Source: Candidatus Saccharimonadia bacterium
GTDB lineage: Bacteria > Patescibacteriota > Saccharimonadia > CAILAD01 > CAZGYV01
Direction: 5' to 3'
Length of the DNA: 64,000 bases
Assembly: GCA_041906885.1 (NCBI GenBank)
Contig: JAYRII010000012.1
Span: 94,955-158,954 of the forward strand
Shown here: positions 4,724 to 57,842 of the stretch, piece by piece
Layout: each line of letters starts with the position of its first letter
Position numbering within the stretch: the stretch's first letter is position 1
The notes under the pieces: model-generated
Database searches by the model: none
The model's input: the letters and a program-made list of their open reading frames with translations, nothing else
What the model was told of the DNA's origin: nothing
Position numbers and translations under genes: made by a program

Positions 4724-5110
4724 TTGGCTCAACCCACCATATTGTTAGTCGAGGACGACGAGACCTTGGCCGCGATGTATCAGCTCAAGTTGGAAGCAGC
4801 CGGCTATAAGGCTGACGTGGTGCATTCTGGAGCGGCTTGTTTGGCCTATATTGATCGCAAGAAACCCAGCTTGATTTTGTTGGATATACTTTTGCCGAAG
4901 CTAAACGGCTTTCAGGTCTTAAAAGAGCTACGCAAAATCAAATCTATGGCTCAAACGCCAGTCATCATCCTGACCAACTTGGTCGAGGCCGATGTCAGTA
5001 TGAGCCAAGAGCTGGCCAGTAGTCTCGGTGTAGTTGATTATTTGGTTAAGTCTAAGGTGACACCAAATGAGGTGGTGGCCAGGGTCAACTTGGCAATTGG
5101 TGGCAAGTAA
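4724..5110 (+). CDS. single-domain response regulator receiver (CheY-like)
   Basis: LLVEDDE...LILLDILLP...K pattern typical of REC domains. Confidence 0.8.
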   Translation: MAQPTILLVEDDETLAAMYQLKLEAAGYKADVVHSGAACLAYIDRKKPSLILLDILLPKLNGFQVLKELRKIKSMAQTPVIILTNLVEADVSMSQELASSLGVVDYLVKSKVTPNEVVARVNLAIGGK

Positions 5111-5139
5111 ATGATGATAATAGCAACAGGCAGCTAGGC

Positions 5140-5856
5140 GTGAGAGCTAGGAATTATAGGGCGCGTGGCTTGGTCATTAAGAGGCACAATCTGGGTGAGG
5201 CCGACCGGATATTGACGGTTTTTACGAGTGAGCTGGGCAAGTTGCGGGTAGTCGCTAAAGGTGTGCGTCGAGGTCGTAGCAAGCTGGCTGGCCACCTAGA
5301 GCCGTTTGTCGAGACAGAGCTTCAGTTGGCGCGTGGTCGCAACCTGGATGTGGTGACAGGCGCGCGCGGGCAGCGCTACTACTTAATCAATCAAGATAGC
5401 CTGGAGACTATCACGACGGCTTATTTGTGCCTAGAGGTTATCGACCGACTGATGGCTGACGAGCAGGCGAGCGAGCCTGTCTACGCGCTGGCCGGTGAAG
5501 TCTTAGCGAGGCTAGAGAGCGGTGTAAATTACCTGCTAGCGCGGCACTATTTCTTCGTCAAGTTTTTATACTTGACTGGCCAACAGCCTAATATGGAAGC
5601 GCGTGATGGGGCAAGTGAATATTTCTTGAATTTTGATGCCGGAGTAATCAGCGGCCAGGTCCAAGAGGGACAAGAGGCCAGGCCGATAGCTAGAGAGATT
5701 ATTAAGCTGTGGCGACTCATCTACGGTAATGATCTAGCCCAGATCAGCCGCTTGGGTGGGGTGGAGCGACATTTGGCGGCCGCCCAGGAGCTGATTGAGC
5801 TCTTCTATGATTACCACCTGCATACTCGCTTCAGGTCGGAGAAGATATTGGGGTAG
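5140..5856 (+). CDS. recO: DNA repair protein RecO
   Basis: N-terminal OB-fold signature GLVIKRHNLGEADRILTVFT, length 238 aa. Confidence 0.8.
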   Translation: MRARNYRARGLVIKRHNLGEADRILTVFTSELGKLRVVAKGVRRGRSKLAGHLEPFVETELQLARGRNLDVVTGARGQRYYLINQDSLETITTAYLCLEVIDRLMADEQASEPVYALAGEVLARLESGVNYLLARHYFFVKFLYLTGQQPNMEARDGASEYFLNFDAGVISGQVQEGQEARPIAREIIKLWRLIYGNDLAQISRLGGVERHLAAAQELIELFYDYHLHTRFRSEKILG

Positions 5857-5874
5857 GCTTTTTTAAGTTTTTAA

Positions 5875-5930
5875 CTACGTTTCGTCCTCATTAGGACTCA
5901 TCAGAACGACTATATAATTCGTTGACGTAG
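5875..5930 (-). ncRNA. hammerhead ribozyme, type III topology (open stem III)
   Basis: minus strand reads CUACGUC|AACGA-AUUAUAUAG-UCGUU-CUGAUGA-GUCC-UAAUGA-GGAC-GAA-ACGUAG: complete CUGAUGA and GAA core, GUC cleavage triplet, stem III CUACGU/ACGUAG (6 bp), stem I AACGA/UCGUU, stem II GUCC/GGAC. Confidence 0.8.
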
Positions 5931-5951
5931 CCCGCCCCTAAAAGGGGCGGG
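5931..5951. terminator. strong GC hairpin CCCGCCCC-uaaaa-GGGGCGGG abutting the ribozyme cleavage site; bidirectional hairpin between convergent recO and minus-strand ORF
   Basis: perfect 8-bp G/C stem; no clean U-tract, so probably an RNA 3'-end stabiliser rather than a classic intrinsic terminator. Confidence 0.45.
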
Positions 5952-6013
5952 TGCCACCCTAGATCATCTTGTGACCTCGGGTAGCTGGAGAAGAGAAGAA
6001 AGTCAGTGTGGCA

Positions 6014-6631
6014 TTATTTATGCCACCAGACTACCTCCTCGGGGGAGCCGGTGAACTCTCTCACCTCCTCGCGAACCGAGAAGCTCATTAGCTTCTCGGC
6101 GTGCCCATAGGCCAAGATTTGTGACCGGTTGAAGGCAATATATGCTTTGCCTTCAAAATCAGGTTTGACCGCATAGATAGGCCATTCAAAGCCTTTGTCC
6201 AGGTATTCGGACACGAAGAGCTCTGGGTCGAGCTCTTCTCCTGGGATTTTGGCTACTGATAGCCCCTCCGGGCTATCTTCGAACCACTCGATCCAACCGT
6301 TGCTTGAGTCTCCGAGAGCGAATGGCTTTCCATTCGCTACGGTAAATAGCACCCCTTCGACCCTATCTGTGCCGGTGGGGGTTGCTGCATATTCATGCAG
6401 CAACTCGATAGCCTCCTCCTTCGAGCGCACTATGTACGCATAAGAGTAGTCTTTTCCAAAAGCTACTTCGTTGAATCGGTCGGTTATTACCAGGTATGCC
6501 TGGTCTTCCATCTTCCCTCCAGGGAAGTCGTCCTCCGAGTACTCATTATTCCTCGAAGGTGGGTCATGGTGGCCACTTCTGGAGTGACCTTTCGTTTCCG
6601 CTTTTTTTTGACCCATTCGGACCTGATACAC
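6014..6631 (-). CDS. hypothetical protein (GC-richer than neighbours; His/Lys-rich N-terminus)
   Basis: 205-aa ORF; alternative ATG at 6616 (MGQKK...); no recognisable motif. Confidence 0.5.
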   Translation of the reverse strand: MYQVRMGQKKAETKGHSRSGHHDPPSRNNEYSEDDFPGGKMEDQAYLVITDRFNEVAFGKDYSYAYIVRSKEEAIELLHEYAATPTGTDRVEGVLFTVANGKPFALGDSSNGWIEWFEDSPEGLSVAKIPGEELDPELFVSEYLDKGFEWPIYAVKPDFEGKAYIAFNRSQILAYGHAEKLMSFSVREEVREFTGSPEEVVWWHK

Positions 6632-6963
6632 CTGGCCAGGTTCTTTTTTCTTAACCCGTAGGTGACCTGGTAGGTGGTATCAGAAAACTCAAGGTGCCGA
6701 TCAGGTTTTTAACCCTCACAACGTCATACATATTACCATAAGTGAAATAATATGTCAATAGTTTTGTGCCAGTCTGGAATAGCTCTATGTCTCGACCATA
6801 AAGAAAGTAGTAGATCCCCTGCGCCCTCGAAAAACAGAAAGTCGAGTTAGGAATTTAGTTGATCCAGAAATACAGCTTTGAGCGGGAGCGAGTCTGTATT
6901 TCCAACTAAAATTCTAATGAGACACTTCTAGCTTTTGAGCCCTAGGCGCGAAAGAGGCTTTTG

Positions 6964-6990
6964 CTACTTTTGGCCGTAACCCAAAAGTAG
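6964..6990. other. perfect 10-bp-stem hairpin CTACTTTTGG-ccgtaac-CCAAAAGTAG
   Basis: seen directly in sequence, immediately upstream of repeat array. Confidence 0.6.
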
Positions 6991-6995
6991 AGAAG

Positions 6996-7144
6996 AGATC
7001 CTTCGGCTACGCTCAGGATGACAACGGGGGATATACGAATAGATCCTTCGACTGCGCTCAGGATGACACTTGGTGAGCTCAGGATGACGGGGCGGCTCAG
7101 GATGATGGAGGGTGAGAGATCCTTCGGCTACACTCAGGATGACA
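6996..7144. repeat. direct-repeat array: three 28-bp copies AGATCCTTCG(G/A)CT(A/G)C(G/A)CTCAGGATGACA (6996, 7041, 7117) plus two short copies GCTCAGGATGA(C/T) (7077, 7095)
   Basis: repeats read directly; irregular 45/36/18/22-bp spacing. Confidence 0.7.
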
Positions 7145-7161
7145 GGACGAGAGAATTTAAA

Positions 7162-7190
7162 ATGACAGACCAGATCATTTAAGGTATAAT
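7162..7190 (+). promoter_or_regulatory. sigma70-like promoter ATGACA-N17-TATAAT 10 nt upstream of glyQS ATG (near-leaderless)
   Basis: hexamers and 17-bp spacer seen in sequence. Confidence 0.4.
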
Positions 7191-7200
7191 ATGGCTCAAT

Positions 7201-8574
7201 ATGGCAGAAAATAAACCTGAAAAACAATCTCATATTTCAATGGAAGAGCTAACCAGCTTCGCCAAAAGGCGCGGCTTTGTCTTTCAAGCCAGTGAGCTTT
7301 ATGGCGGCATTGCCGGCTTCTGGGATCTCGGTCCGTATGGGGTCGAGCTGGCCAGTAATATCAAAAAAAGCTGGTGGCGCGAGTTTGTCTATAAAAACCC
7401 TGAAATTATCGGCCTTGATTCGACCATTATTCAAAACCCCAAGCTGTGGCAGGCCAGTGGTCACACCGATACCTTTGTCGATCCGATGATTGATTGTAAG
7501 GCCTGCAAGCACCGTTTTCGAGCAGATCACGTGGCTGGAGTTGACACAAGTGACCTGGCCAAGCTAGACAAGGCTCTAGCAGATAAAGCTTGTCCGAACT
7601 GTGGCAAGACCAAGACTTTCACTCCAGCTCGGACTTTCGGCATGATGTTTAAGACTTACGTCGGCCCGATCGAAGACGAAGCTGCCAAAAGCTATCTGCG
7701 CCCCGAAACGGCCGGGGGAATATTTACTGATTTCGAGCTAGTACGGGAGACGATGCGAGCCAAGCTGCCATTTGGTATCGCTCAGATTGGTAAGGCTTTT
7801 CGCAACGAGATCACGCCTGGAGATTTTATATTTCGAGTGCGTGAATTTGAGCAAATGGAGCTGGAGTACTTTGTCGACCCCAAGGAGGCGAAGAAATGGT
7901 ACGAAGACTGGAAGAAAGCTTGCATGGCTTGGTGTGAGTCGATTGGCCTCTCGAAGGAAAACCTGCAATTCCACGATCACGCTCCAGATGAAAAAGCACA
8001 TTATGCCGATGCCAGCGTCGATATCCAGTATCGCTATCCGTTTGGCTTCAAGGAGCTTTATGGTATCGCTAATCGAACTGACTTTGACCTCAAGGCCCAC
8101 GCCAAAGAGTCAGGCCGCGATTTGAGCTACTTTGATGAAGCCTCGGGCAAGCGTTTCGTGCCTTATGTAATTGAGCCGTCGGTTGGTGCCAGCCGGCTAA
8201 TGCTGGCGCTACTGCTCGACGCTTATGATGAGGAAGAGGTTAGCGGCGAGAAGCGGGTCGTACTACGATTTAAGCCAGAAATAGCTCCGGTCAAAGTAGC
8301 GATATTGCCATTATCAAAGAAGCCCGAGCTATCCAAGCTGGCGCACGAAGTTTATACGACAGTAGCAGGGGAGTACAATGTCGAATATGATGAGACCCAA
8401 TCGATTGGCCGGCGCTATCGCCGCGCCGACGAGATCGGCACACCGTATTGTGTGACAGTTGATTTTGAGAGTCTCGAGGATCAGGCTGTGACCGTGCGTG
8501 AACGTGACTCGATGAAACAAGTACGGATTAAAATCAACCAGCTCAAGGGATATCTTGCAACTAGATTGAACTAG
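7201..8574 (+). CDS. glyQS: glycyl-tRNA synthetase, alpha2 (GlyQS) type
   Basis: class II aaRS motifs, length 457 aa, N-terminal FQASELYGGIAGFWDLGPYG typical of dimeric GlyRS. Confidence 0.9.
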   Translation: MAENKPEKQSHISMEELTSFAKRRGFVFQASELYGGIAGFWDLGPYGVELASNIKKSWWREFVYKNPEIIGLDSTIIQNPKLWQASGHTDTFVDPMIDCKACKHRFRADHVAGVDTSDLAKLDKALADKACPNCGKTKTFTPARTFGMMFKTYVGPIEDEAAKSYLRPETAGGIFTDFELVRETMRAKLPFGIAQIGKAFRNEITPGDFIFRVREFEQMELEYFVDPKEAKKWYEDWKKACMAWCESIGLSKENLQFHDHAPDEKAHYADASVDIQYRYPFGFKELYGIANRTDFDLKAHAKESGRDLSYFDEASGKRFVPYVIEPSVGASRLMLALLLDAYDEEEVSGEKRVVLRFKPEIAPVKVAILPLSKKPELSKLAHEVYTTVAGEYNVEYDETQSIGRRYRRADEIGTPYCVTVDFESLEDQAVTVRERDSMKQVRIKINQLKGYLATRLN

Positions 8575-31580: not shown

Positions 31581-33302
31581 TTATTTGACTAGCGGCAGCG
31601 AAAAATTAAATTTGCTACCCTTGCCAACTTGGCTTTCGACCCAAATGCGCCCGCCATAGGTTTCGATTAAACTGCGAGCGATATAGAGGCCAAGCCCGGT
31701 ACCGCCGATCTCTCGAGTCATTGAGCTATTGACACGATAGAATTTTTGAAATAAATGTTTTTGGTCTTCAGCTGAAATTCCAGCACCGGTGTCAGCCACT
31801 GAGACAGTGACACTTTGCCGATTACCACTTAGATAGACATCAACCCCTCCTGTGGCGGTGTATTTGATCGCGTTATCAATCAAATTTGAAACCACCTCTC
31901 GAAGTCTTTCAGGGTCAGCACTGACCTTATATGTAGGGGCAAGTACTAATTGATTTTTCATGCTAGTCTCTCCGATATGGGTATGCAAGACTAAATTCTT
32001 GCGTTTAGCAATAATTTCCATTTCTGAGGCAATTTGAGTGATCAACTCGCTTAGATTAAAGACTTGTCGATTGTCTACTAATCGCTTATCTTCTATCTTG
32101 GTAACACTCAAGAGGTCTTGGAATAATTTGCCCAGATGCAAGGCAGAGTTATGTGCTTTTGAGATAAAGTTTCTTGCTCTCTCGTCGACTGTTGCTAAAT
32201 TAGGATTGATGGCCATTGATAGATAGCCCTCAATGGCTGCTACAGGAGTACGCATCTCGTGACTAGCAGTTGATACAAATTCATTACGCTCACGCTGAAC
32301 GGCTTTCTGCTCGGAGATATCATGAAATACAGCGACCGCACCTTCGATTTGTTGACGTATGTTATAGGTCGGTGCAATTGAGATTGAGAACGAGATTTTT
32401 TGATTGTTTTTATCGAGCATATAAAAATCATCTCTACTTGTGTGCTTGTTTTCTTTTAATACCATCATAAATGGATCGGTCAGATTATTGATTTCTTGGT
32501 CTTTAGCATCTTTTAGCTTAAAAATAGTATTGTATTGTATACCAAGAGCACTATTGATGTCCCAACCGGTCAGTCTCTCAGCTGCTTGATTAAATAATAC
32601 AATTTTAAGATTTTTATCAACACCAACTACAGCATCATCGATGGCACTCATCATGAGTTGTTCTTTAACTTCAGCTGTATCCAATTGGCTGATAAGCTTT
32701 TCGGCAATGCTAATATCTTTGCGGTAGTTATCAATTAGAATACTAATGACAAAACTGAGCGCGGTCGCAGTGACAGTTAAAATCCAGACTGTAATACTAC
32801 CGAGATGGTTGGTATGAGTGGTGAATGTGAGACCAGCTGCAATCAGGTAGTAAAGCAAAGTCAGTGTAGTAGCGAGAAAGCAAACGCGCCGTGATAGTAG
32901 GCCGGCAATAATTACGACCGTAAACCAGCGCACGAAATATTGGCTAGCCAATCCCCCATCGGCGAACGTTAAAATCATTAGAACTAAAGAGATAGTGAGC
33001 GCAACTGAAAAAACCGCCATTGGCCGGTCGCGAGATTTTAATTTAGGCCAAATTATTAAGTTGTAGATCAGTCCAATAACCGACAGTCCTATTGCAGAGA
33101 ATTTAATTATCAACGAATAACTGTTTAATTGACCTGTTTGAGGTAAAAATAGTACAGTTGCTATGACTGCAAGCTGGAGTACGGAAGAAATGTACATTAA
33201 CCAGTTGTTAAAACGTCGGTCAATACGAGAAACTCGCCACAGGTCACTTTCGGTATTGGGTGGATTTTTTATTTCTGCCGACTGATTGGTAGTTGGTACC
33301 AT
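31581..33302 (-). CDS. sensor histidine kinase (multi-TM N-terminus, PAS, HisKA, HATPase_c)
   Basis: H-box SHEMRTPV, N-box, G-boxes DTGAGIS and GGTGLGL. Confidence 0.85.
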   Translation of the reverse strand: MVPTTNQSAEIKNPPNTESDLWRVSRIDRRFNNWLMYISSVLQLAVIATVLFLPQTGQLNSYSLIIKFSAIGLSVIGLIYNLIIWPKLKSRDRPMAVFSVALTISLVLMILTFADGGLASQYFVRWFTVVIIAGLLSRRVCFLATTLTLLYYLIAAGLTFTTHTNHLGSITVWILTVTATALSFVISILIDNYRKDISIAEKLISQLDTAEVKEQLMMSAIDDAVVGVDKNLKIVLFNQAAERLTGWDINSALGIQYNTIFKLKDAKDQEINNLTDPFMMVLKENKHTSRDDFYMLDKNNQKISFSISIAPTYNIRQQIEGAVAVFHDISEQKAVQRERNEFVSTASHEMRTPVAAIEGYLSMAINPNLATVDERARNFISKAHNSALHLGKLFQDLLSVTKIEDKRLVDNRQVFNLSELITQIASEMEIIAKRKNLVLHTHIGETSMKNQLVLAPTYKVSADPERLREVVSNLIDNAIKYTATGGVDVYLSGNRQSVTVSVADTGAGISAEDQKHLFQKFYRVNSSMTREIGGTGLGLYIARSLIETYGGRIWVESQVGKGSKFNFSLPLVK

Positions 33303-33501
33303 ATATTTAATATTGTAGCATAAACAATTACATCAAAAGCTTAATAATAACTTAAGTTAGTGCGTCAATATCTAGTAGTACTTATATCTGTGGCGGCTGG
33401 ACAAAATAGTTGAATTATAGCTCAACTGCTTTGTGGGCCGCCACCCGACCTTAAGGCCGGGTAGCGTGAACCAACTTTGTCTCGTCTAACGAAAAATTTG
33501 G

Positions 33502-33615
33502 TTATTGGTCGTTTTTACGCAGGGCCGCGATCATGGCAGCAAGACCGATACATACCCCCACAAAGGAGTATGCAATTGTGGCAACCACCAACTTGTCATA
33601 AATCCGCTTCTTCAT
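33502..33615 (-). CDS. candidate 37-aa hydrophobic peptide (MKKRIYDKLVVATIAYSFVGVCIGLAAMIAALRKNDQ)
   Basis: GGAG RBS 7 nt upstream of ATG; single TM; not in ORF track because <60 aa. Confidence 0.3.
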   Translation of the reverse strand: MKKRIYDKLVVATIAYSFVGVCIGLAAMIAALRKNDQ

Positions 33616-33671
33616 TATTATCTCCATTTTTATTTGGTCATGCAGTATCCCTTACAGATACAAATGTACTA

Positions 33672-33700
33672 AAAAACCATCTTACCAATCAGATGGCTTT
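33672..33700. terminator. bidirectional intrinsic terminator AAAAAA-CCATCT-taccaatc-AGATGG-CTTTT
   Basis: 6-bp stem flanked by A-run and T-run. Confidence 0.45.
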
Positions 33701-33746
33701 TAAGACCTACTATCTAACAAATGGTGCATATTGGCAATAATTTTCT

Positions 33747-33908
33747 TGGTGATCCCACGGGGAGTGTAGCTACGCTACGTGCATTCGCAGTGCTCGATCC
33801 GCCCGGTGGCGGATTCTGTGCTCTGCTCATTGGCACCCGCCCCATGGGTTCGAGATATCTCACGATATCAACCATGAAAAATGCCCACCTTGCGGTGAGC
33901 TTCTTTCA
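33747..33908 (-). repeat. ~140-nt element downstream of tRNA-Glu ending in a 19-nt direct repeat (TGGTGATCCCACGGGGAGT, plus-strand 33747..33765) of the tRNA 3' end
   Basis: exact 19-nt duplication of 33909..33927; internal hairpins; homologous to element after tRNA-Leu. Confidence 0.55.
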
Positions 33909-33983
33909 TGGTGATCCCACGGGGAGTCGAACCCCGGTTACCAGGATGAGAACCTGGCGTCCTAACCACTAGACGATGGGACC
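33909..33983 (-). tRNA. tRNA-Glu (anticodon CUC), 75 nt with encoded CCA
   Basis: cloverleaf folded by eye: acceptor GGUCCCA/UGGGAUC, D-stem GUCU/GGAC, anticodon stem CCAGG/CCUGG loop UUCUCAU, T-arm CGGGG-UUCGACU-CCCCG. Confidence 0.9.
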
Positions 33984-34081
33984 GGACTAATATTAGCTAT
34001 TTTTAACCACAAAATAATACCATAAAAAGTTATTTACTCCAAGAGGCCCATGTGCATTAGATGTGATAAAATATAATTCTT

Positions 34082-35314
34082 ATGGCAAATAAAAAACCAC
34101 AATTTAAAGCTATCGACATCAGTATTCGCAAACGAGCTATAAAGCCAGAAGTTCCACTGGGAAAAAAAAGTCTCAGCACACCCCAGACTACAAAAAGCAC
34201 TAAAATATCTGCCGCTACTGAGCAGCAAACAGCAAGCTCCCCGTCCAAACCCAAAAAAAGGCTTAGTAAAAAGACAAAAATAATCATAATAGTGACAGTT
34301 ATTCTATTAGTTTTGTCTGCCGCGGGGCTGATTTTTTATTATACTCGCCCCAAGCCGACCACTACTCGCGCTCAAACTAGCGTCAAGACATCAGAAGAAG
34401 CAGTTAAGCCGGCTACCGTGCCGAGTCCTTTGACTGGTGTTGGTGTTGGCGGGGCGGCTGCCAAGCAGCCGGTTGTGGCGGTTGTCGTCGAAAATTTCTA
34501 TCCAGACGCTCGTCCCCAGTCTGGTTTGGCCAGCGCCGGAGTAGTTTATGAGGCCTTAGCCGAAGGTGGAATTACGAGATATCTTGCTCTCTATCAGGAT
34601 CATTTAGCACCAGATATTGGTCCCGTGCGGTCGCTCAGGACCTACTTTGTTGACTGGGGGCTTGAATACAACGCTCCCGTTGCGCATGTCGGTGGTAATG
34701 CCGATGCACTAGATTTAATTAAACCACTCAATATGAAGAATCTTGATCAATTCTATAATGGTAGCTACTTTCGGCGAGTGACGTCACGCTATGCTCCACA
34801 TAATGTTTATATCATTGATGCGCAGATGAAAAAATTATTAAATGATCGAGGCTACGCTGGCGAGCCAACCTTTACTCCTTGGCCGAGGAAAGACGATAAA
34901 AAGTCAGATAGTTTAACGGCCTCGACTATCACTGTGAATTTTTCCGGTGCTGACTATCAGGCGAAATTCGAGTACGACCCGAGCAGTAACAGTTACGCGC
35001 GATTTGTGCGCAACACGCCTGATGTGGACGCCAATGACAAGGTGGCAGTTAAACCCAAAAACGTTATTGTAATGTATATGCCAACTCAATTTGGTGCGAC
35101 TAGAATTGGTGAGGCTACTGTTGTTATGCAAACCGTCGGTACTGGCAAGGCGGTTGTTTTTATGGACGGTGTGGCGACTGAAGCGACCTGGAAAAAAGCC
35201 AGTCATGAAGGTCGGACACAGTATTATGACACCAACGGTGCTGAAATCAAGCTAAATCGCGGCCAGACATGGGTATCGGTGATACCGGTTGGCAAAGAAG
35301 TCAGCTACAAGTAA
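34082..35314 (+). CDS. DUF3048-like lipoprotein/secreted protein
   Basis: signal anchor, T/P-rich linker, conserved VVVENFYPDARPQSGL...RSLRTYF pattern of DUF3048. Confidence 0.55.
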   Translation: MANKKPQFKAIDISIRKRAIKPEVPLGKKSLSTPQTTKSTKISAATEQQTASSPSKPKKRLSKKTKIIIIVTVILLVLSAAGLIFYYTRPKPTTTRAQTSVKTSEEAVKPATVPSPLTGVGVGGAAAKQPVVAVVVENFYPDARPQSGLASAGVVYEALAEGGITRYLALYQDHLAPDIGPVRSLRTYFVDWGLEYNAPVAHVGGNADALDLIKPLNMKNLDQFYNGSYFRRVTSRYAPHNVYIIDAQMKKLLNDRGYAGEPTFTPWPRKDDKKSDSLTASTITVNFSGADYQAKFEYDPSSNSYARFVRNTPDVDANDKVAVKPKNVIVMYMPTQFGATRIGEATVVMQTVGTGKAVVFMDGVATEATWKKASHEGRTQYYDTNGAEIKLNRGQTWVSVIPVGKEVSYK

Positions 35315-35317
35315 TCT

Positions 35318-35716
35318 TCAGTCGTTTTGAATATTGATACTAGTGCTGGTGGAATTTTGAGTGTTGGCAGATCCGTCGTCACTACTAGCTGATTGGCTCG
35401 ACTGATTAGTAACTGACACGTTATTAGTGCCGTCTTTGTGCTCAACAGTTGAGTCGGAGCTTGAGCTGACCGATCCACCTGGGCTTGTCTGGCGACTAGT
35501 TTCCTGCTTGATTTCGACCTTAGACTTCTCGGACTGATCACTCATTTCAATCTCCTGACTTACCTCTGGCAATTTGGTGGCATGATTTTTACTATTTTGC
35601 TTACTGGTTGAATTATGCGTTTGTACCGCCAGGCCAATACCACCAAGAATCAACGATGCCAAAATACCAAATCCGATCTTGGTAAATATTTTTTGGCTAT
35701 TTCTAAACTTAAACAT
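35318..35716 (-). CDS. hypothetical signal-anchored Ser-rich protein
   Basis: N-terminal TM then low-complexity S/N/Q-rich. Confidence 0.35.
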   Translation of the reverse strand: MFKFRNSQKIFTKIGFGILASLILGGIGLAVQTHNSTSKQNSKNHATKLPEVSQEIEMSDQSEKSKVEIKQETSRQTSPGGSVSSSSDSTVEHKDGTNNVSVTNQSSQSASSDDGSANTQNSTSTSINIQND

Positions 35717-35771: not shown

Positions 35772-36722
35772 TTACTCATTTTTTATGTTAATAATATTGG
35801 TTGTCTGATTGCTGGTTGACGAATTACCACTATTAGAGCCGTTACCACTAGTACTTTGTTGGTTGTTACTATTTATGATGCCGATATTGTTGTTATTCAC
35901 GATATTGATATTACAGTTGTCATTAAACGTGATTGAATTGGTCGAGCCAGGACCAGTGTCTGTAATCGTGCCACTGTGATTTGGCGTTGGGCAGGTGTTA
36001 TTGTTGCCACCTGAGCCTGAATTATTAACGGAGATGGTATTACCAATCAGACTAGCTTGAGAAAAAAGCCCTGCCCTGGCGTAACTAAAGCTTAACAATG
36101 AAAAAACCACAATCACCAAGGCTCGTTTAGCTATACCGTCAATATTGGGTCGGCCTGCCTTTGGTGTTTGATCAGCCGGTTTTGTCTTGTCTTTGATGGG
36201 AGGATTTTTGGGTAAATCATTGTGTGATTTGCTGGTTTTTCTAAGAGACTGTCGAAGAATTCTTATTTCATCGTAAATGATAAAAGCGGCCGGAATGAAA
36301 ATGAGTAATATTATAATTGGCCAGCCTTTGGAGTGGTTTAGGTAGCCGCCAATTTTGGGATAATGCCACTCTACCCTACCAACTACATTGCCACCGAATA
36401 TCTCAGCGTCATTCTGTTCGTTGGCGTCACCTTTCGTGATCAATGCCGGTAGACCTTGTTTGGTTTTTAGCTCGACGATGCGGTGAGTAATAGTCTGTTT
36501 GGTGTTTTGCGGATTGATATAGGTCACTACGTCGCCAGTTTTTAGCTGCTTATAGGGAACGCGATGGACTATTACCAGTGATTCCTGCGGGATGGCAGGA
36601 TTCATACTGCCAGTCAAAACCGACATGGCCCTAAAGCCAGTTTGCGGTAATAAAAAGACTGCCAGTATGATCCCGCTGATCACACAAATCGTGGCACAAA
36701 ATATTTTTAGAGCTTTGATCAT
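35772..36722 (-). CDS. sipW: SipW-like (archaeal/ER-type, S26B) signal peptidase I with unusual C-terminal extension
   Basis: LTGSMNPAI (SGSMxP box), ITHRIV (His box), ITKGDANEQND (TKGDNN box); second TM then Asn-rich tail. Confidence 0.7.
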   Translation of the reverse strand: MIKALKIFCATICVISGIILAVFLLPQTGFRAMSVLTGSMNPAIPQESLVIVHRVPYKQLKTGDVVTYINPQNTKQTITHRIVELKTKQGLPALITKGDANEQNDAEIFGGNVVGRVEWHYPKIGGYLNHSKGWPIIILLIFIPAAFIIYDEIRILRQSLRKTSKSHNDLPKNPPIKDKTKPADQTPKAGRPNIDGIAKRALVIVVFSLLSFSYARAGLFSQASLIGNTISVNNSGSGGNNNTCPTPNHSGTITDTGPGSTNSITFNDNCNINIVNNNNIGIINSNNQQSTSGNGSNSGNSSTSNQTTNIINIKNE

Positions 36723-36763
36723 GTTTTGATCTCCCGAAAAGGAATAATTTATTTGTGTTGTTT

Positions 36764-37300
36764 TTAAGGTTGTGTGCCAGTAAAGACAATGTCAAAGGCA
36801 TTGATCTGAGCCGCAGAGCCAGTCACAGCATCGGCGTGCACATTTACAACCACTTGATAGTTGTTTGTAGCAGCCGCATTGATAGTGGCAATTGAGACGT
36901 TGCCATTAATCAGATCCGCTAAAGTTGTGTCAACGACAGGCGAGTTGTCAATTTTCTGAATCTTGACTTCTACTTTGTTGAAATCTGTAAAGTTGCTGTA
37001 AGTTGGGGCAACTGGCACATGTGCAGTGACAGCTAATGCTACACCACCATTGTTTTTCAAATCAAAAGCGAAGGGTGTGGTATTCACACCAGGAACTACA
37101 TTTGTAAGCATAAAACCCTGCGCCGAGCTACCAAAACCAGACCCAGTATCAACTTGCAAATCAGCCGTGGCAGTAGCTAGCGTGTTATTTGTCAGGGTCG
37201 CAGTTGAAGTCAAATTCGCAAAAGTTGCACCTGCGACTAAAGTGAGAGTTGCTCCAATAGCAACAGCAGCACGAGAGATTGCCATACGTCGTGTTGTCAT
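36764..37300 (-). CDS. TasA/camelysin-family (SipW-cognate signal peptide) secreted protein
   Basis: signal peptide MTTRRMAISRAAVAIGATLTLVAGATFANL with A-x-F-x-N SipW-cognate motif and downstream TLATATADLQVD resembling TasA N-terminus; adjacent to sipW. Confidence 0.55.
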   Translation of the reverse strand: MTTRRMAISRAAVAIGATLTLVAGATFANLTSTATLTNNTLATATADLQVDTGSGFGSSAQGFMLTNVVPGVNTTPFAFDLKNNGGVALAVTAHVPVAPTYSNFTDFNKVEVKIQKIDNSPVVDTTLADLINGNVSIATINAAATNNYQVVVNVHADAVTGSAAQINAFDIVFTGTQP

Positions 37301-37487
37301 ATCTAAATCACCCCCTCTCTGATCCAATTAGCCTCACAAAAAGCTTATCCTTATTATACACTTATTATAATAAAAGCAATCTTTAAATGTAATAAAGCAC
37401 AATTTTTTTGACAGAAGAGGCTGTCTGCTCTATCCTGCAGTCATCATTATAGTTAATTGGGGTGGTGTACTGGGCAAGATTTTATTA

Positions 37488-38570
37488 GTGAGATTAGGGC
37501 TAGGGTTGCTGATCGGAGTATATATAATCGGAGGCTTAGTTCTGTCTGGGGGCAATCCAGTTTTAGCATTGGTGGAGTCAGTCAAGCAGGAGCTCCAGTC
37601 GCCAAGCCAGTTGGCTCGATCGCCCATCCCAGCAAATAGTCAACTAGCTAATGACACTAGTCAAACCCCAGTCTCCAAATCGCCAGCAGCCAAATCTGGT
37701 GAGAATATGAAATCAAACAGTCAGCCACTGACAAAAAAGCCCCAGTCAGTTGGCATTTTTATCAGCAATTCCCCGGATGATCCGGCTGCGTTTGGCGTCC
37801 TAGATCAGGTCTCGGCTATGGGCTTTAACACGGTCTATAACTATTCTTCTTTTCACTCATCACCAGAAAACGTTAGAAAATACCTTGACTATGCTGGAGG
37901 GCGTGGCCTGAAAGTTATTTTTAGTCTTAAAGATCTCTATGATCAATTACCAGGCAGTCAGCAGTGGCCACAAAATTTTGGTTATTATGGAGGTAGCAAC
38001 GAGGAAATAGCCCTAAACGTTGTCCGACTATTTAAGGACCACCCCGCAACCTGGGGATTTTCAATTAGTGATGAAGCACCGGAGGGCCCTGCCCAGTTAT
38101 CGTCTTGGCAGCAAGTGCTTGAAAGCCGTTATCAAAAGATCAAGTCGATCACCAATAAGCCCGTTATGTTGGTATTGGTCGGACAGACCAGCCCAAACCA
38201 ATCGACTCGCAGGAATTTCTTAAGCAGCCTGAGGAGTGCTCGAGATAATTTTGCACTTGATTACTACCCGATTCCGTTCGAATCCCCTGACCAAATTAAT
38301 TCTATCACTGCTGATATGCCAGCGATTGGTGAAAATAATGGTTGGTTCGTTGCTCAATGCTTTAGCTGGAGTAGCTATTCAACAACAGCCTATGGCTTGG
38401 GCTATAATGCCTCTGTTGCTCGCCCGCCAGCCGCTGAGGAGATGTATAATATGGCCAAAATGGCCTTAAACTCCGGAGCGCGCAATATTATGTTTTATTC
38501 ATATTTTGACATCAAAGACAATCCAGCCCAGCTGGCGGCCCTAAAAAGCGTAGTCGCCAGACTACGCTAG
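37488..38570 (+). CDS. secreted hypothetical protein (TIM-barrel glycoside-hydrolase-like suspected)
   Basis: signal peptide; no firm catalytic motif identified. Confidence 0.3.
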   Translation: MRLGLGLLIGVYIIGGLVLSGGNPVLALVESVKQELQSPSQLARSPIPANSQLANDTSQTPVSKSPAAKSGENMKSNSQPLTKKPQSVGIFISNSPDDPAAFGVLDQVSAMGFNTVYNYSSFHSSPENVRKYLDYAGGRGLKVIFSLKDLYDQLPGSQQWPQNFGYYGGSNEEIALNVVRLFKDHPATWGFSISDEAPEGPAQLSSWQQVLESRYQKIKSITNKPVMLVLVGQTSPNQSTRRNFLSSLRSARDNFALDYYPIPFESPDQINSITADMPAIGENNGWFVAQCFSWSSYSTTAYGLGYNASVARPPAAEEMYNMAKMALNSGARNIMFYSYFDIKDNPAQLAALKSVVARLR

Positions 38571-38601
38571 TTTTGATCTTTAGCTTGATTGAAGCGTGCT
38601 A

Positions 38602-40311
38602 CTAGATTTGTGGTGTAAGCTCGGTAATCGCCTGATCAACAGTTTTAATCGGCACTCCAGACTGCTCAATTGCAGAAATGTGTGTATCGAGGTCAGTCGG
38701 CGTAACGGCATAACTGTCACCCGAACTATCTACTTGGTGATAAACTAGCACCAACCAAGTTTTATCGGCTTTGGCTCTGGCGACCCAGCTTGCAACTTGC
38801 TCTGGCGTGGTAGTTGATAAGATGTTTTGTACCCTGATATTATATAGGTCAAAGTTATCTTTACTGTTGTAGCCCTCATCAACCGATCGGTGTGAGCGAT
38901 AGAGTATCTTAATCGCTGCGATAGTGGATGAATTGTATGCACCATATGGCGAGGCAAAATCCTGGACTGGGCTACCAAAATGCACTTCTAAGAAACTTTT
39001 TGAATTGGTCAATTCAGCCATCAAATCATTGTAGGCCAAAGTCGTCAGATCGGGGTGAGTCACTGTGTGTGAAGCAATCTGGTGGCCAGCATTTTTGAAT
39101 GCCATCACATCACTTGAGGTCATGTAGAGTGGATCTTTGTCGATATTACCCGTCAAAATGTATTGCGTTGACAAGACATGATGGGCTGAGAGAATTGGCA
39201 GACCACTGCTGTAAATAGATTTCCAGCCGTCATCAAAAGCCAAGCTGACCAGGCCATTATTAAAGCCGTGTACGGTGGTTGGTACGAAGCTATAATCATC
39301 TACACTCAAATAGCCGACCCCGGCAATCAAGTGAAATACTGTCACGCTTGAGGTGCCGGCTGGCAGTTCAACGCTGTCGCTATATTGCGTCCAGCTTGTC
39401 GGGCTGGCTGGGGCATTTTTTAGGTTCAAATAGCTTATCGTACCATCAATCTTGCTAGCAGCAACCACAACGTGTGTATCGATGCTGGATTTGTAGTAAT
39501 CACTAAAACTATAGATTTGTCCGCCCTGAGCCGGCTGCGAGTCAAAGTACCATTTGGCGTCTCCGTCGGTGTACTTAGTCATGTCAATCCGAGCAGCATG
39601 GTTACCATTGTGACCTGTACTGAGGAGGCTAAAAGTGGCCGTATTAGTACCCCATTTACTATTCTGCCAGGCCAGTGGGCTGCCAGTTAGGTCGTTCACC
39701 TGTTCTAGTGAGTTATTTGGCACCCCGCTAGTTATGACTGGTACGTCAGCTGTGTATTGAGCCAGCTTAGTATTGTCGATGATTAGCCAGCCCCGACCAG
39801 TAATTAGGTGTAAAACAGTAACTGATTTGGCCTTAGCAGGTGTACTAAAAACATATGATACTTGTTTCCAGGTGTTTGTTTTAGCTGCCGTACCTAGCCA
39901 TTGGTAGCTGACACCACCGTCTTCATCGGTCACCCGGACGACTACTTCAGAACTAATATTGGCCCGATAATAATCACTGTATATATACTGTGAGTTAGCT
40001 TTGACCGCCACATCGTCAGAGAACCATTTGGCGTCACCATCGGTGTAGCTAGCTATATTGACTTTGACGCTCCGACTGCCAGTCTGACCGGTCTTGAGAT
40101 AGCTGTATCCGGCAGTATTTGTTCCCCAATTCGAATGAGTCCAGCCTTGAGGTAGTTGGCCTGGTTTATTGGTGCTTGGTTGCTCCATTGATGGATTGAC
40201 GATCAAGTTAGGCCCAATTGCTGCCTGAGCAGGGTTCATCAAGGCACTCACGACAAAAGCAGCCAGAGCAATCATTAGACCTAGTCCAAATCGCATAAGT
40301 AATTTTTTCAT
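38602..40311 (-). CDS. secreted polysaccharide deacetylase (CE4/NodB) with two N-terminal CBM-like beta-sandwich repeats
   Basis: NodB motifs LAFDDGW and HTVTHPDL; duplicated ~150-aa N-terminal modules; signal peptide. Confidence 0.75.
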   Translation of the reverse strand: MKKLLMRFGLGLMIALAAFVVSALMNPAQAAIGPNLIVNPSMEQPSTNKPGQLPQGWTHSNWGTNTAGYSYLKTGQTGSRSVKVNIASYTDGDAKWFSDDVAVKANSQYIYSDYYRANISSEVVVRVTDEDGGVSYQWLGTAAKTNTWKQVSYVFSTPAKAKSVTVLHLITGRGWLIIDNTKLAQYTADVPVITSGVPNNSLEQVNDLTGSPLAWQNSKWGTNTATFSLLSTGHNGNHAARIDMTKYTDGDAKWYFDSQPAQGGQIYSFSDYYKSSIDTHVVVAASKIDGTISYLNLKNAPASPTSWTQYSDSVELPAGTSSVTVFHLIAGVGYLSVDDYSFVPTTVHGFNNGLVSLAFDDGWKSIYSSGLPILSAHHVLSTQYILTGNIDKDPLYMTSSDVMAFKNAGHQIASHTVTHPDLTTLAYNDLMAELTNSKSFLEVHFGSPVQDFASPYGAYNSSTIAAIKILYRSHRSVDEGYNSKDNFDLYNIRVQNILSTTTPEQVASWVARAKADKTWLVLVYHQVDSSGDSYAVTPTDLDTHISAIEQSGVPIKTVDQAITELTPQI

Positions 40312-40451
40312 ATTTTCTCCCTTATTGAAATTTAATGTTGCACTAAAGAAGCTATGACGCGTGACATTAAAACTATGTGGTAAATACCAAATGCAGTAGC
40401 CACAAAAGCTATTATTAAAGATCTAATTTTAAACTTTATCAAAATAACCTG

Positions 40452-40628
40452 CTATTTTGTGGCGTTTTTGAGGTACAAAACACCCCAAACAAGTAAAATG
40501 ACTGCTGACAAGCTAGCTACTGGGATAGCCCAGTTAGCACCAGTTGATGGCAACACAGCTACGCCGGCACCAGCTACTACTGGTACTATTACGCCGCCGC
40601 CGCGGCCTGGTGTAATTCCTTCACTCAT
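40452..40628 (-). CDS. 58-aa peptide ending in a cell-wall sorting signal (LPSTG + hydrophobic + KNATK)
   Basis: AGGAAA RBS 6 nt upstream of ATG; LPSTG-ANWAIPVASLSAVILLVWGVLYL-KNATK; below ORF-track size cutoff. Confidence 0.4.
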   Translation of the reverse strand: MSEGITPGRGGGVIVPVVAGAGVAVLPSTGANWAIPVASLSAVILLVWGVLYLKNATK

Positions 40629-40651
40629 GATTTTTCCTTACTATTAAAAAA

Positions 40652-41758
40652 CTATCTGGTCTGGATGCGATAGCGTCGCGATGACGTTTCCCATCCAGGC
40701 TTAATAGTTTTAAAACGACCCAGAATAATTACCTCGATAAATGACTTATAAAACAGGTATAGATTCGTAAATCTCAAAACGTAAAATAACGGAAAAGCGG
40801 TAAATATATCCCACCGTTTATTTAAGGCAGCGGCAAACGTTGTCCAGCCGAGCATGAAGCCAATGTCAAAGATAAAGTACATCGCCAAAGAGCTTAGCCC
40901 GCGTTGGCTCAAGGCTGCAAATGCCATAATCAAGAGGAGTTCAATCGTAAAAATAAATGTCTCAGCAATCATAAAAAACATATAAGCATCAATTTTTTGA
41001 GCTCGCATGGCTAGCTGGTGTTTTTTCTGACCTTGCCAAAATCCTCTGTACCATCGGACTACCTGATTTTTAAAATCTTTAAAATCTTTCGGATCTTGAG
41101 TGTAGCTTTTTGCTTCCGGGAAATAGGCGATTTTACCAAGTCTGGCGCGGTGTAATTGGATAGTCAGGTCAAAGTCCTCGGTCAGACTACTGTGATCAAA
41201 GTCTAGCTGGTCGAAAATATCAGATCTAAAGCATGAAGTTGGACCGGGAATGACAGTAATTGTGCCCAGCCAGGCCTGCAAACGACGGAAAATTTCTAGA
41301 CCGATAGTGTATTCGAAGGTACGGTATTTGCTAACCCATCCGCCTGGTAAGCTCTGGACATGACCACAGGCAGCTGCATACTTTGGGTTGAGTTTATGAC
41401 GGAAAACCTTGAAATATGTTGGTCCGAAGACTCCATCAGCATCGGCGATATGGATCCAAGAATAGCGTGCCGTCAGATTATAAAAATCAACACACTTCTT
41501 GATCGCACCAGCTTTACCACTGTGCGCTACCTTGATGACATTATTTGGATGTATCATCTGGCTGGCAATTAGTGAGGTGTTATCAACCGAAGCATCATCA
41601 ACGACATAAATATCTCGCTTCGGTTGACCAGCTTTTTTGGCCGAAGCAATTGTAGCAGCAATCACCAGCTCTTCATTATGGGCTGGAATGACCAGGGCTA
41701 ATTTACGTTTATAAATTCTAGCTTTAAACATGAGCTTCCTTGTGTAAACAAAGCCCAT
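40652..41758 (-). CDS. processive family-2 glycosyltransferase (PgaC/IcaA/cellulose-synthase-like)
   Basis: DDAS, DADG, TED and QVVRW (QxxRW) motifs; C-terminal TM helices. Confidence 0.75.
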   Translation of the reverse strand: MGFVYTRKLMFKARIYKRKLALVIPAHNEELVIAATIASAKKAGQPKRDIYVVDDASVDNTSLIASQMIHPNNVIKVAHSGKAGAIKKCVDFYNLTARYSWIHIADADGVFGPTYFKVFRHKLNPKYAAACGHVQSLPGGWVSKYRTFEYTIGLEIFRRLQAWLGTITVIPGPTSCFRSDIFDQLDFDHSSLTEDFDLTIQLHRARLGKIAYFPEAKSYTQDPKDFKDFKNQVVRWYRGFWQGQKKHQLAMRAQKIDAYMFFMIAETFIFTIELLLIMAFAALSQRGLSSLAMYFIFDIGFMLGWTTFAAALNKRWDIFTAFPLFYVLRFTNLYLFYKSFIEVIILGRFKTIKPGWETSSRRYRIQTR

Positions 41759-41924
41759 TTTTTAAATAAAAAGAGGGCTTTCACCCTCGAAATAAACAAT
41801 GAGGCGTATAATAACTTATAATTAACAATATGTCAATAGTCATTAGGTAATAAATTACAAAATACATTTTAAATTTTACTGCCAAAACGCTTACCCTTTG
41901 ATATAATACTTCCTAGGACCAATC

Positions 41925-43301
41925 ATGGCATTATCACGCAGGATCCCTAGTCCCCTAGGCTCTACTTTAGTCGAAATAATTATTAGTCTAAGTATTGTAT
42001 CGGTTGTAATTTTGGCAGTTGTATCGGTACTGATATTTAATTTACGAATAATTTCCAGCGCTAAAGCTCGAGCTATCGGCACGGCACTAGCTAATGAAAA
42101 ATTAGAAAATCTACGCAACATGCCCTACGATAGCCTGGCTACGGTCAATGGACCGATCTATCCGGCCGGTACGATTCCGGATGATCAAAACGTTACTGTC
42201 AGCAATATCAAAATGCGTGTTCACACCGATATTGACTACGTTGACGATCCTTATGATGGAAACTATAGTGGTACAATTGTTGGTAAGCCAAAGGATTTAT
42301 ACCCTTATGATTATAAAAAAGCTACCATATCTGTTTATCTAGTAGCTGGCAATCAGAAATTAACCTCACTCAGTTCAAATATAGCCGGTAAGGTTGCCGA
42401 GACGGCCAGTAATACCGGCATTATCGCGGTTAAAGTCCAAGACGCCAGCGGCAATCCAGTCGAAGATGCTGTTGTCCATTTGACTAATTCCTCAGTTGCA
42501 CCAGCGGTTGATATCACCACTAATACTGATATTCAGGGTCAAGTATTAGTGCCAAAAATGCCACCAGATGCTGGTGGTCATTATCATATTGAAGTGACTA
42601 AAACTGGCTATTCAAGCGATCAAACATATCCAGCTACAGCTCAATTACCAGTACCGGCGCGACCGGACTTTAGTGTTATAGCACAGCAAACTATCAGTCT
42701 GACATTTAGCATTGATCAAACAGCTAATTTAACCGTTAGAGTAAAAGACGCCTCTGGCAATGCTTTAGCTGGTAAGTCAATTACTGTCAGCGGGCAAAAA
42801 CTACTCAATGATCCGAATTCTACACCAAATGTACCAAAAACAACCCAAACACTAACGACTGATGCGACTGGAAAAATCAATATTTCTAGCCTGGAGTGGG
42901 ACAGTTACACTTTCTCAATAAATGGATATAAAATCCTCACTTCATCCCCCTATAGTCCGGTTAGTGTCGGCCCGCTTTCAAGCCTGACAGTTGATATTGT
43001 GGCTGATGTTAATTCAACTAATTATCCGACTATCAGTAATGTTAGCCCTCGCAGTGCCCCACCAGGAGGCAGTTTGCAACTTGATGTAATTGGAAATAAC
43101 TTGAGCAGTACGACCACAGTCAGGCTGAAAAAATCTGGCCAAAGTGATATTCTTGCATCTGGAGTAACTTATGATAGTTCAACAGGTACGCTGAGTGGTA
43201 ACGTTGATCTGAGTAGTGCGGCAACAGGAAACTGGGATATCGAGATTACAAAAGGCGGCTTAACAACTACCCAGATTGGAGGTCTGAATGTCTCAAATTA
43301 G
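41925..43301 (+). CDS. type IV pilin-like (pseudopilin) protein, 458 aa
   Basis: prepilin-type N-terminus ...PLG|STLVEIIISL (Glu at +5) then hydrophobic helix. Confidence 0.6.
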   Translation: MALSRRIPSPLGSTLVEIIISLSIVSVVILAVVSVLIFNLRIISSAKARAIGTALANEKLENLRNMPYDSLATVNGPIYPAGTIPDDQNVTVSNIKMRVHTDIDYVDDPYDGNYSGTIVGKPKDLYPYDYKKATISVYLVAGNQKLTSLSSNIAGKVAETASNTGIIAVKVQDASGNPVEDAVVHLTNSSVAPAVDITTNTDIQGQVLVPKMPPDAGGHYHIEVTKTGYSSDQTYPATAQLPVPARPDFSVIAQQTISLTFSIDQTANLTVRVKDASGNALAGKSITVSGQKLLNDPNSTPNVPKTTQTLTTDATGKINISSLEWDSYTFSINGYKILTSSPYSPVSVGPLSSLTVDIVADVNSTNYPTISNVSPRSAPPGGSLQLDVIGNNLSSTTTVRLKKSGQSDILASGVTYDSSTGTLSGNVDLSSAATGNWDIEITKGGLTTTQIGGLNVSN

Positions 43302-57755: not shown

Positions 57756-57842
57756 GCCAGAGTGGTGGAATTGGTATACACGCATGACTCAAAATCATGT
57801 GGAGCTTGCTCCTTGTGGGTTCGAGTCCCACCTCTGGTACCA
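57756..57842 (+). tRNA. tRNA-Leu (anticodon CAA), 87 nt with long variable arm and encoded CCA
   Basis: acceptor GCCAGAG/CUCUGGU, anticodon stem CAUGA/UCAUG loop CUCAAAA, variable arm GGAGCUUGCUCC, T-arm GUGGG-UUCGAGU-CCCAC. Confidence 0.9.

Follow-up and report, generated by a model that had tools for sequence, protein, structure and literature searches.

A three-gene cassette with a fused signal peptidase

The stretch of DNA analysed here, 64,000 nucleotides of a contig from a Candidatus Saccharimonadia bacterium (JAYRII010000012.1, positions 94,955 to 158,954; hereafter the window), carries three minus-strand open reading frames (ORFs) lying head to tail, with products of 178, 316 and 132 amino acids (genes 1, 2 and 3). 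Genes 1 and 2 are separated by 41 nucleotides and genes 2 and 3 by 55 nucleotides, with a Shine-Dalgarno-like sequence before each of the three. The longest ORF of gene 1 extends over 36764..37327 (−) from a TTG start; its likely start is the ATG at 37300, located behind GAGGGGGTGA, which would give the product of 178 residues. The central element is gene 2, in which a signal peptidase is followed on the same chain by a segment resembling the signal of the gene 1 product and by a surface module. A preliminary description had reported the first two genes as a SipW-type signal peptidase paired with a TasA/camelysin-like substrate; both ORFs lie where it had placed them, and every segment that it described within the 316-residue product was found. 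The features of the cassette are:

36764..37300 (−), gene 1: 178-residue secreted beta-sandwich protein, distant TasA/camelysin-like putative fibre subunit (ORF, AlphaFold2 model)
37217..37300 (−), gene 1 residues 1–28: putative signal peptide of the SipW-cognate type, sub-threshold on the curated model (TIGR04088, alignments)
35772..36722 (−), gene 2: 316-residue fusion of signal peptidase, internal signal and surface module (ORF, homologues)
Gene 2 residues 7–26 (−): TM1, first transmembrane segment (hydropathy)
36264..36692 (−), gene 2 residues 11–153: signal peptidase I domain of the endoplasmic reticulum (ER)/archaeal/SipW type (TIGR02228, conservation, Foldseek)
Gene 2 residues 27–133 (−): catalytic part (segment analysis)
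36606–36608 (−): catalytic Ser39 (invariant, aligned to SEC11A/C)
36483–36485 (−): catalytic His80 (invariant, aligned to SEC11A/C)
36426–36428 (−): catalytic Asp99 (invariant, aligned to SEC11A/C)
36255..36323 (−), gene 2 residues 134–156: TM2, C-terminal anchor as usual in peptidases of this type, placed outside to inside (hydropathy)
36123..36254 (−), gene 2 residues 157–200: basic Pro-rich linker, probably cytoplasmic (12 Lys/Arg against 4 Asp/Glu, net charge +8)
36072..36122 (−), gene 2 residues 201–217: internal signal-peptide-like segment, with a 14-residue hydrophobic core (residues 201–214) and A215-R-A217
36027..36071 (−), gene 2 residues 218–232: donor-strand-like motif GLFSQASLIGNTISV (profile match, per-position comparison)
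35775..36026 (−), gene 2 residues 233–316: module A, probably extracytoplasmic, C244...TDTGPGSTNSI...C270 followed by NNIGIINSNNQQSTSG...NIINI (alignment)
35318..35716 (−), gene 3: 132-residue protein with an N-terminal transmembrane segment or signal and a Ser/Asn-rich tail (ORF)

The N-terminal part of gene 2 matched TIGR02228, the model of the archaeal/ER-type signal peptidases (MEROPS S26B), with 87.8 bits against a cut-off of 51.85 over residues 11–153. The same model was matched by all 60 gene 2 homologues that were aligned, which had been chosen at a length of at least 279 residues, share 25–81% identity and are all single ORFs. Residues S39, M40, P42, T79, H80, R81, G98, D99, A100, N101 and D105 are invariant in this alignment and coincide with three boxes of human SEC11A/C (GSMEP, VHR and KGDNN). 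The AlphaFold2 (AF2) model gave a peptidase domain with a predicted local distance difference test score (pLDDT) of 95–98 and a helix at residues 134–168, spanning TM2. Its best Foldseek matches were SEC11C/SEC11A (7p2q, E 8.3e-6; 7p2p, E 4.3e-5), with a TM-score of 0.63 normalised by target length, the bacterial LepB being weaker. The model score, the invariant residues and the fold thus identify gene 2 as a Ser/His peptidase of the SipW/Sec11 type, as had been proposed. The equivalog model of Bacillus SipW itself (NF046067) gave 63 bits, below its cut-off of 190; judged from its sequence, gene 2 is SipW-like in type and context and, by the NCBI criterion, no orthologue of Bacillus SipW.

Beyond TM2 the chain continues through the basic linker, which ends in the conserved motif R-P-N-I-D-G-I-A-K-R. 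The general form R-x-x-[IML]-D-G-[IM]-x-[KR]-R (window 36129–36152, just before the internal signal) recurs in the homologues and may be a remnant of a once separate gene, from its start and n-region. Several homologues (P0007, P0015 and P0022) show the variant M-D-G. Hydropathy analysis placed a third hydrophobic segment after the linker in nearly all of the 60 homologues. In gene 2, A-R-A217 at the end of this segment is followed by GLFSQASLIGNTIS, a position-by-position repeat of the end of the gene 1 signal and its first mature residues, with GLFSQASLIGNTISV corresponding to NLTSTATLTNNTLAT of gene 1.

A hidden Markov model (HMM) was trained on the N-terminal part of the 178-residue family, comprising the signal and the beginning of the mature protein. 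In each of the 60 fused homologues its match fell on the third hydrophobic segment, always in the same place, and 41 of them exceeded the top score of 6.1 bits reached by 600 tail-shuffled controls; gene 2 of the window scored 9.0 bits at residues 217–231. By this control, the likeness to the neighbour's signal, which the preliminary description had noted as that of a further hydrophobic segment behind the anchor to a SipW-cognate signal, is greater than expected by chance. Residue counts over 41 fused proteins gave the same pattern as the 178-residue family, namely G-x-T-[FYR]-A/A-L-x-S-x-A-T-L-T-[GND]-N-T-I-[ST], in which, as below, the slash marks the cleavage position. Ala was found at position −1 in 38 of the 41, and position −3 was occupied by Thr (26), Ala (6), Val (3) or Gly (1) in 36. 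Adherence to the (−3, −1) rule of signal peptidase I is thus no less strict than in real substrates. Further counts were Leu 28 at +2, Ala 33 at +6, Leu 37 at +8, Asn 36 at +11 and Ile 33 at +13. The two profiles are nearly equal from −5 to +15 and depart from each other beyond about +15, so that the signal and first strand are common to both and the body is not.

The internal cleavage site is predicted to be A217/G218. Since the linker is basic, the positive-inside rule would place it in the cytoplasm, in which case the third hydrophobic segment, like a signal peptide, would cross the membrane outwards and the tail would lie on the side of the active site. The topology suggested is an N-terminus inside, TM1, the catalytic domain outside, TM2, the linker inside, the internal signal and the tail outside. 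With this topology the scissile A217/G218 bond would therefore be on the same membrane face as the active site.

Conservation of the fusion and gene order in relatives

Extended proteins of 280–530 residues dominate the list of gene 2 homologues, and the fusion was kept in all 60 aligned homologues, down to 25% identity. The 316-residue product is identical on at least 24 contigs of independent assembly, which also share genes 1–3 and their flanks, and the three genes are also present in a relative (L010) with a peptidase of 64% identity. One locus (L006, the same as L016) holds two fused peptidases. These are arranged in tandem at 5001–6014 and 6822–7805 of a Saccharimonadia genome, with products of 337 and 327 residues and a TasA-like gene between them; the first of the two has a degenerate post-signal motif and a different Cys-containing insert in its tail.

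The preliminary description had left open that the long ORF reflects an unrecognised gene boundary and had suggested a search for internal starts near 36240..36190. No in-frame ATG was found between residues 121 and 235 of gene 2, and an internal translation start was rejected, the ATG near 36219 being out of frame. The only TTG and GTG codons in this part fall within the hydrophobic core, none of them behind a Shine-Dalgarno sequence. A frameshift or assembly artefact was likewise rejected in view of the identical contigs and the conservation of the fusion, which occurs twice in L006. The split arrangements found in the relatives L008, L009 and L017 would agree with a 316-residue ORF that joins two genes through a sequencing or assembly error or a missed start, but such an origin is given next to no probability, as the comparative sequence data already refute it, and the suspected gene boundary can be discarded.

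It should also be noted that other long SipW-type peptidases (P0094, P0098, P0104, P0107, P0116 and P0117) carry Gln/Pro/Tyr-rich repeat tails of 130–250 residues without a third hydrophobic segment and represent a different kind of extension. These tails should be cytoplasmic, and the proteins were judged from their sequences to be Firmicutes-like.

Gene order was examined in further loci. A gene matching the signal-motif HMM was located directly upstream of the peptidase in L004–L007, L009, L010, L013, L014 and L017, so that all nine further loci in which the upstream flank was present (eight of them distinct) have a member of the gene 1 family at this position, some of them with two or three paralogues. 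Two-gene cassettes without cargo were found in L009 and L017. The six loci from the genome collection, retrieved with an 11-sequence alignment, the 60-sequence alignment being too divergent, all belong to metagenome-assembled genomes of Candidatus Saccharibacteria/Saccharimonadia, in agreement with the named homologues, and the earlier designation of the genome as one like those of the candidate phyla radiation (CPR) is correct for this reason.

The locus L008, from a related uncultured bacterium, differs in that the functions are carried by separate genes. Upstream of its peptidase lies a bona fide PF12389 gene, encoding a 224-residue protein with 35.8 bits against a gathering threshold (GA) of 22.5; the second gene encodes an unfused peptidase of 181 residues. 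The third overlaps the peptidase gene by 13 nucleotides and encodes a protein of 689 residues with a faint match to the lamin-tail domain (LTD, PF00932) in its C-terminal region. This protein starts with MRKVIFFIVFFILFSVKPVSA/NFSDGETSLNNLFSASSLDFSL (...VSA/), that is, with a cognate signal followed by the motif. Many gene 2 homologues of 400–530 residues carry the LTD after the internal signal, although gene 2 of the window does not (Pfam). The C-terminal half of the fusion is therefore represented in a relative by an independent gene for a cognate-signal substrate.

The secreted neighbour, the tail module and the genomic surroundings

The signal of gene 1 scored 13.2 bits (E 0.077) on TIGR04088 and did not reach the cut-off of 19 bits; seven of 24 gene 1 relatives matched the model at E <= 0.1. 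All 24 homologues compared keep R10, T26 and A28, and the cleavage site is predicted as T26-F-A28/N29, with NLTSTATLTNNTLAT as the first mature residues. In alignment, T26-F-A28/N-L-T-S corresponds to T-R-A/Y-F-S-D of the canonical cognate signals, which places the A-x-F-x-N signal of the preliminary description one register off. With 970 representatives at E <= 0.001 in a set clustered at 50% identity, 173 of them at E <= 1e-30, gene 1 belongs to a large unannotated family.

A relationship of this family to TasA and camelysin is indicated by several links in sequence. An orthologue with 75% identity (P0122) matched PF12389 with 22.8 bits against a GA of 22.5, over residues 8–133 and two thirds of the profile, and seven of 24 close relatives matched at E <= 1. 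Alignment by hhalign of the family with the PF12389 protein of L008 gave E 0.0018 over 58 columns only, which span the signal end, the first strand and a P-G...L-x-N motif and place the signal on the L008 signal. The AF2 model is a beta sandwich, all-beta after an N-terminal helix (pLDDT 81, predicted TM-score 0.71). Its best Foldseek match by probability was the Sulfolobus thread subunit 7pnb (E 1.6e-3, probability 0.99, TM-score 0.39), and FimA was also among the matches.

A number of results speak against this kinship and, with it, against the fibre model proposed below. The window protein had no Pfam match at E <= 0.1, which adds to its sub-threshold TIGR04088 score, and PF12389 touched only seven of 145 family representatives at E <= 0.01. 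Family profiles run against PDB sequences did not return TasA with significance (E 1.2), and a deeper profile returned only designed immunoglobulin proteins, TasA not being listed. Foldseek gave no PDB match of the model at E <= 0.001, and TasA was absent among the 50 matches listed. The links are real but thin, and membership is remote and borderline. Given the missing Pfam match, the thin links to PF12389 and the weak fold matches, gene 1 is therefore regarded as a distant candidate of the TasA superfamily and not as a PF12389 member. Of the pairing first described, the neighbour thus stands as a family at the edge of PF12389 that lies upstream of the peptidase in nine loci, while the window protein itself falls short on both Pfam and TIGR04088. 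Similarly, of the two models suggested at the time for a search, Peptidase_S26 matched gene 2 with 26.5 bits and Peptidase_M73 (PF12389) found nothing in the window protein.

The tail of gene 2 (84 residues) contains 25 Asn, 13 Ser, 11 Thr, 10 Gly and two Cys, and no Pfam or NCBIfam model matched module A. A profile of the tail retrieved 46 stand-alone proteins of about 100–240 residues. Those inspected begin with a signal peptide of the usual kind and contain, once or twice, a module with the pattern x-I-x-N-T-G-P-G-S-x-N ... N-x-x-x-Q-x-A-x-S-G-x-A ... S-G-x-A-x-N-x-N. Several end in an LPxTG-like motif, a hydrophobic stretch and a basic tail, and one of them reaches the cut-off of the LPXTG model; apart from this one LPXTG anchor, NCBIfam gave no family for the tail, gene 3 or the module A proteins. 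The neighbour of one stand-alone protein holds four module copies, with a sortase gene nearby. As its homologues are secreted and in part LPXTG-anchored, module A is therefore a surface domain, in agreement with the topology suggested above. This 'NTGPGS' module of about 80 residues occurs in one to four copies in Saccharibacteria surface proteins (L011 4001–4579 and 4701–6764; P0146–P0191) and defines a second large unannotated family; in L011 a sortase gene is located near the module genes.

Gene 3 shares 45% identity overall with its L010 orthologue, which has the same neighbours. The last 40 or so residues (NNVSVTNQSSQSASSDDGSANTQNSTSTSINI) are the best conserved and resemble the second half of module A. 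On the module A HMM this tail scored 38.7 bits against 17.65 +/- 3.05 for composition-matched shuffles, none of 2000 reaching it, although with the bias correction of HMMER the match was not significant (E 0.58); a relationship of the gene 3 tail to module A is suggestive. In L013, too, the fused gene is followed by a small ORF of this kind.

The cassette is surrounded by genes of the cell envelope. Window 37488–43301 encodes a 360-residue DUF4434-like protein (weak match) and a 569-residue polysaccharide deacetylase with a CBM_4_9 domain, to which two genes listed for the identical locus L001 can be added, a family-2 glycosyltransferase and a 458-residue protein with CarboxypepD_reg and faint SpaA and Big_1 matches. 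An ORF of 58 residues at 40452–40628 (−), also called as a gene in L001, consists almost wholly of a hydrophobic stretch, LPSTG, a second hydrophobic stretch and a basic end, and looks like a sortase sorting signal nearly without a passenger. On the other side of the cassette a DUF3048 gene is located at 34082–35314, and the region between it and a histidine-kinase gene (31581–33302), namely 33303–34081, holds no long ORF. An Rfam scan of the window found two tRNAs only, tRNA-Glu(CTC) at 33909–33983 (−) and tRNA-Leu(CAA) at 57756–57842 (+). A scan for promoters and terminators gave a −35/−10-like site at 37393..37364 (−); the number of such sites was not above that in shuffled sequences, and the result was not used as evidence.

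Proposed function, alternative readings and known systems

It is on balance considered probable that gene 2 encodes a TapA-like nucleator or anchor fused to its own peptidase, to be released or positioned by cleavage of the internal signal. The three genes would then form a surface-fibre cassette of the Saccharibacterium, with gene 1 as the putative major subunit, whose signal would be removed after T-F-A28 and whose new N-terminus, NLTSTATLTNNTLAT, would probably act as the donor strand linking subunits, as in TasA. Gene 2 would provide the dedicated Ser/His signal peptidase of the ER/archaeal/SipW type, followed by the internal signal and donor-strand-like motif as a second copy of the start of gene 1, and then by the surface module. 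The peptidase may cut A217/G218 in cis or be supplied by a neighbouring molecule, releasing a TapA-like minor subunit whose donor-strand-like N-terminus could insert into the first major subunit and so start or anchor the fibre. The C-terminal module, which is module A here and is joined or replaced by the lamin-tail domain in relatives, would form the surface or adhesive part. The fused TapA-like second subunit, the other explanation offered in the preliminary description, is thus favoured by the split in L008 and by the common motif. More tentatively, and at somewhat under an even chance, the protein may be a true peptidase-substrate polyprotein, in which self-cleavage or cleavage by a neighbour frees one nucleator or tip subunit per enzyme and so primes donor-strand fibres at the surface of the episymbiotic CPR cell.

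Several observations count against the fused TapA-like subunit and have to be set beside two other readings. AF2 gave no confident fold for the tail and low confidence for residues 216–227 and 273–316, and no match to the TapA/YqxM model (TIGR04087) was found in the window protein or in the 60 homologues; the likeness of the tail to TapA is functional only. The main alternative, considered rather unlikely, is that the third hydrophobic segment is a permanent, uncleaved anchor and the tail an accessory extracytoplasmic domain of the peptidase. In such a design the membrane-near motif would tether the fibre base to the enzyme as an assembly platform or occupy the active site as a regulator. Peptidase and tail are indeed covalently joined across the whole clade, and AF2 models residues 195–213 as a helix. 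Haloarchaeal TafD, the peptidase of Tat fimbriae, has four transmembrane segments and a further, functionally uncharacterised domain on the outer side, and bacterial peptidase–DUF5305 fusions exist as well (PMC11821415); as this domain of TafD is seemingly membrane-bound, lying between additional transmembrane segments, an uncleaved design is possible, which again weakens the case for cleavage. However, an Ala at −1 and a small residue at −3 are kept as strictly as in true substrates, the hydrophobic core is just 14 residues long, as in a signal, and the split counterpart in L008 has at its start a cognate signal of the usual, cleavable kind. On all three points the sequences favour cleavage.

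The remaining reading, according to which gene 2 is a general signal peptidase, the gene 1-type proteins are ordinary wall or surface proteins and the fusion only co-expresses a surface protein, is considered improbable. It would accord with the weak TasA membership of gene 1, with the neighbourhood of envelope genes (polysaccharide deacetylase, DUF3048, glycosyltransferase) and with the result that no other S26 peptidase was found within the 64-kb window. A general enzyme would, however, have no need of the post-cleavage motif common to the substrate and the fused cargo, and in every locus examined one to three paralogues with the special signal strictly adjoin the peptidase. In addition, the same position in L008 is held by a bona fide PF12389 gene, and the fold match of gene 1 with the highest probability is a subunit of donor-strand filaments.

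Little is known of the surface structures of the Saccharibacteria, which live attached to other bacteria as their hosts. Should the internal signal be cleaved, the fusion would represent a bacterial example of an enzyme synthesised in one chain with the substrate that it processes, and would offer a simple model for the starting and anchoring of chaperone-free donor-strand fibres. If the polyprotein reading is also true, processing, stoichiometry and assembly site would be coupled without a chaperone or usher. For annotation, it should be noted that the proteins of 280–530 residues named 'signal peptidase I' in this clade hold a second functional part.

Among known systems, the tapA-sipW-tasA operon of B. 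subtilis is similar in having a dedicated ER-type Ser/His peptidase beside beta-sandwich substrates with special signals, and in that the post-cleavage N-terminus of the minor protein resembles that of the major subunit. The donor strand of TasA comprises residues 28–38, directly after the SipW site, and the N-terminus of TapA, which resembles it, has been proposed as the first donor strand (PMC9674648; PMC10151520). The cassette described here differs in its order of subunit, peptidase and cargo and in having the minor protein fused behind an internal signal; its cargo domain is unrelated to TapA, its major subunit lies at the edge of PF12389, and its peptidase reaches only 63 of the 190 bits set as the cut-off for the SipW equivalog.

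Signal peptidases with extra external domains in archaeal filament clusters are already known (PMC11821415). TafD and the peptidase–DUF5305 fusions resemble gene 2 in being of the ER/archaeal type, in belonging to filament gene clusters and in carrying an additional extracytoplasmic domain. TafD differs in that this domain is seemingly membrane-bound, in that no substrate-like signal or donor-strand motif has been described for it, and in the domain families involved. For Patescibacteria, homologues of PF12389 have received no more than one line in a survey, and AbpA of Pyrobaculum is a recognised TasA homologue with no dedicated peptidase beside its operon (PMC9245690). AbpA and the Sulfolobus thread protein Saci_0406 are, like the putative gene 1 subunit, small beta-sandwich subunits processed by signal peptidase I, although the thread structure 7pnb fits the gene 1 model only weakly. 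The literature searched, the coverage of which was incomplete, gave no account of a cognate-signal cargo fused to a SipW-type peptidase.

A further counterpart is the L008 cassette, in which the three functions follow one another as they do here and the third protein has the cognate signal and motif; it differs in keeping peptidase and cargo as separate, overlapping genes and in its canonical F-S-D-x-E-T-S motifs. An analogy is also seen in viral polyproteins, multi-spanning chains in which an internal signal is cut on the outer or lumenal face by the signal peptidase of the host and the downstream part is released. In contrast to these, the enzyme and the internal signal are located here on one chain, and the system is bacterial.

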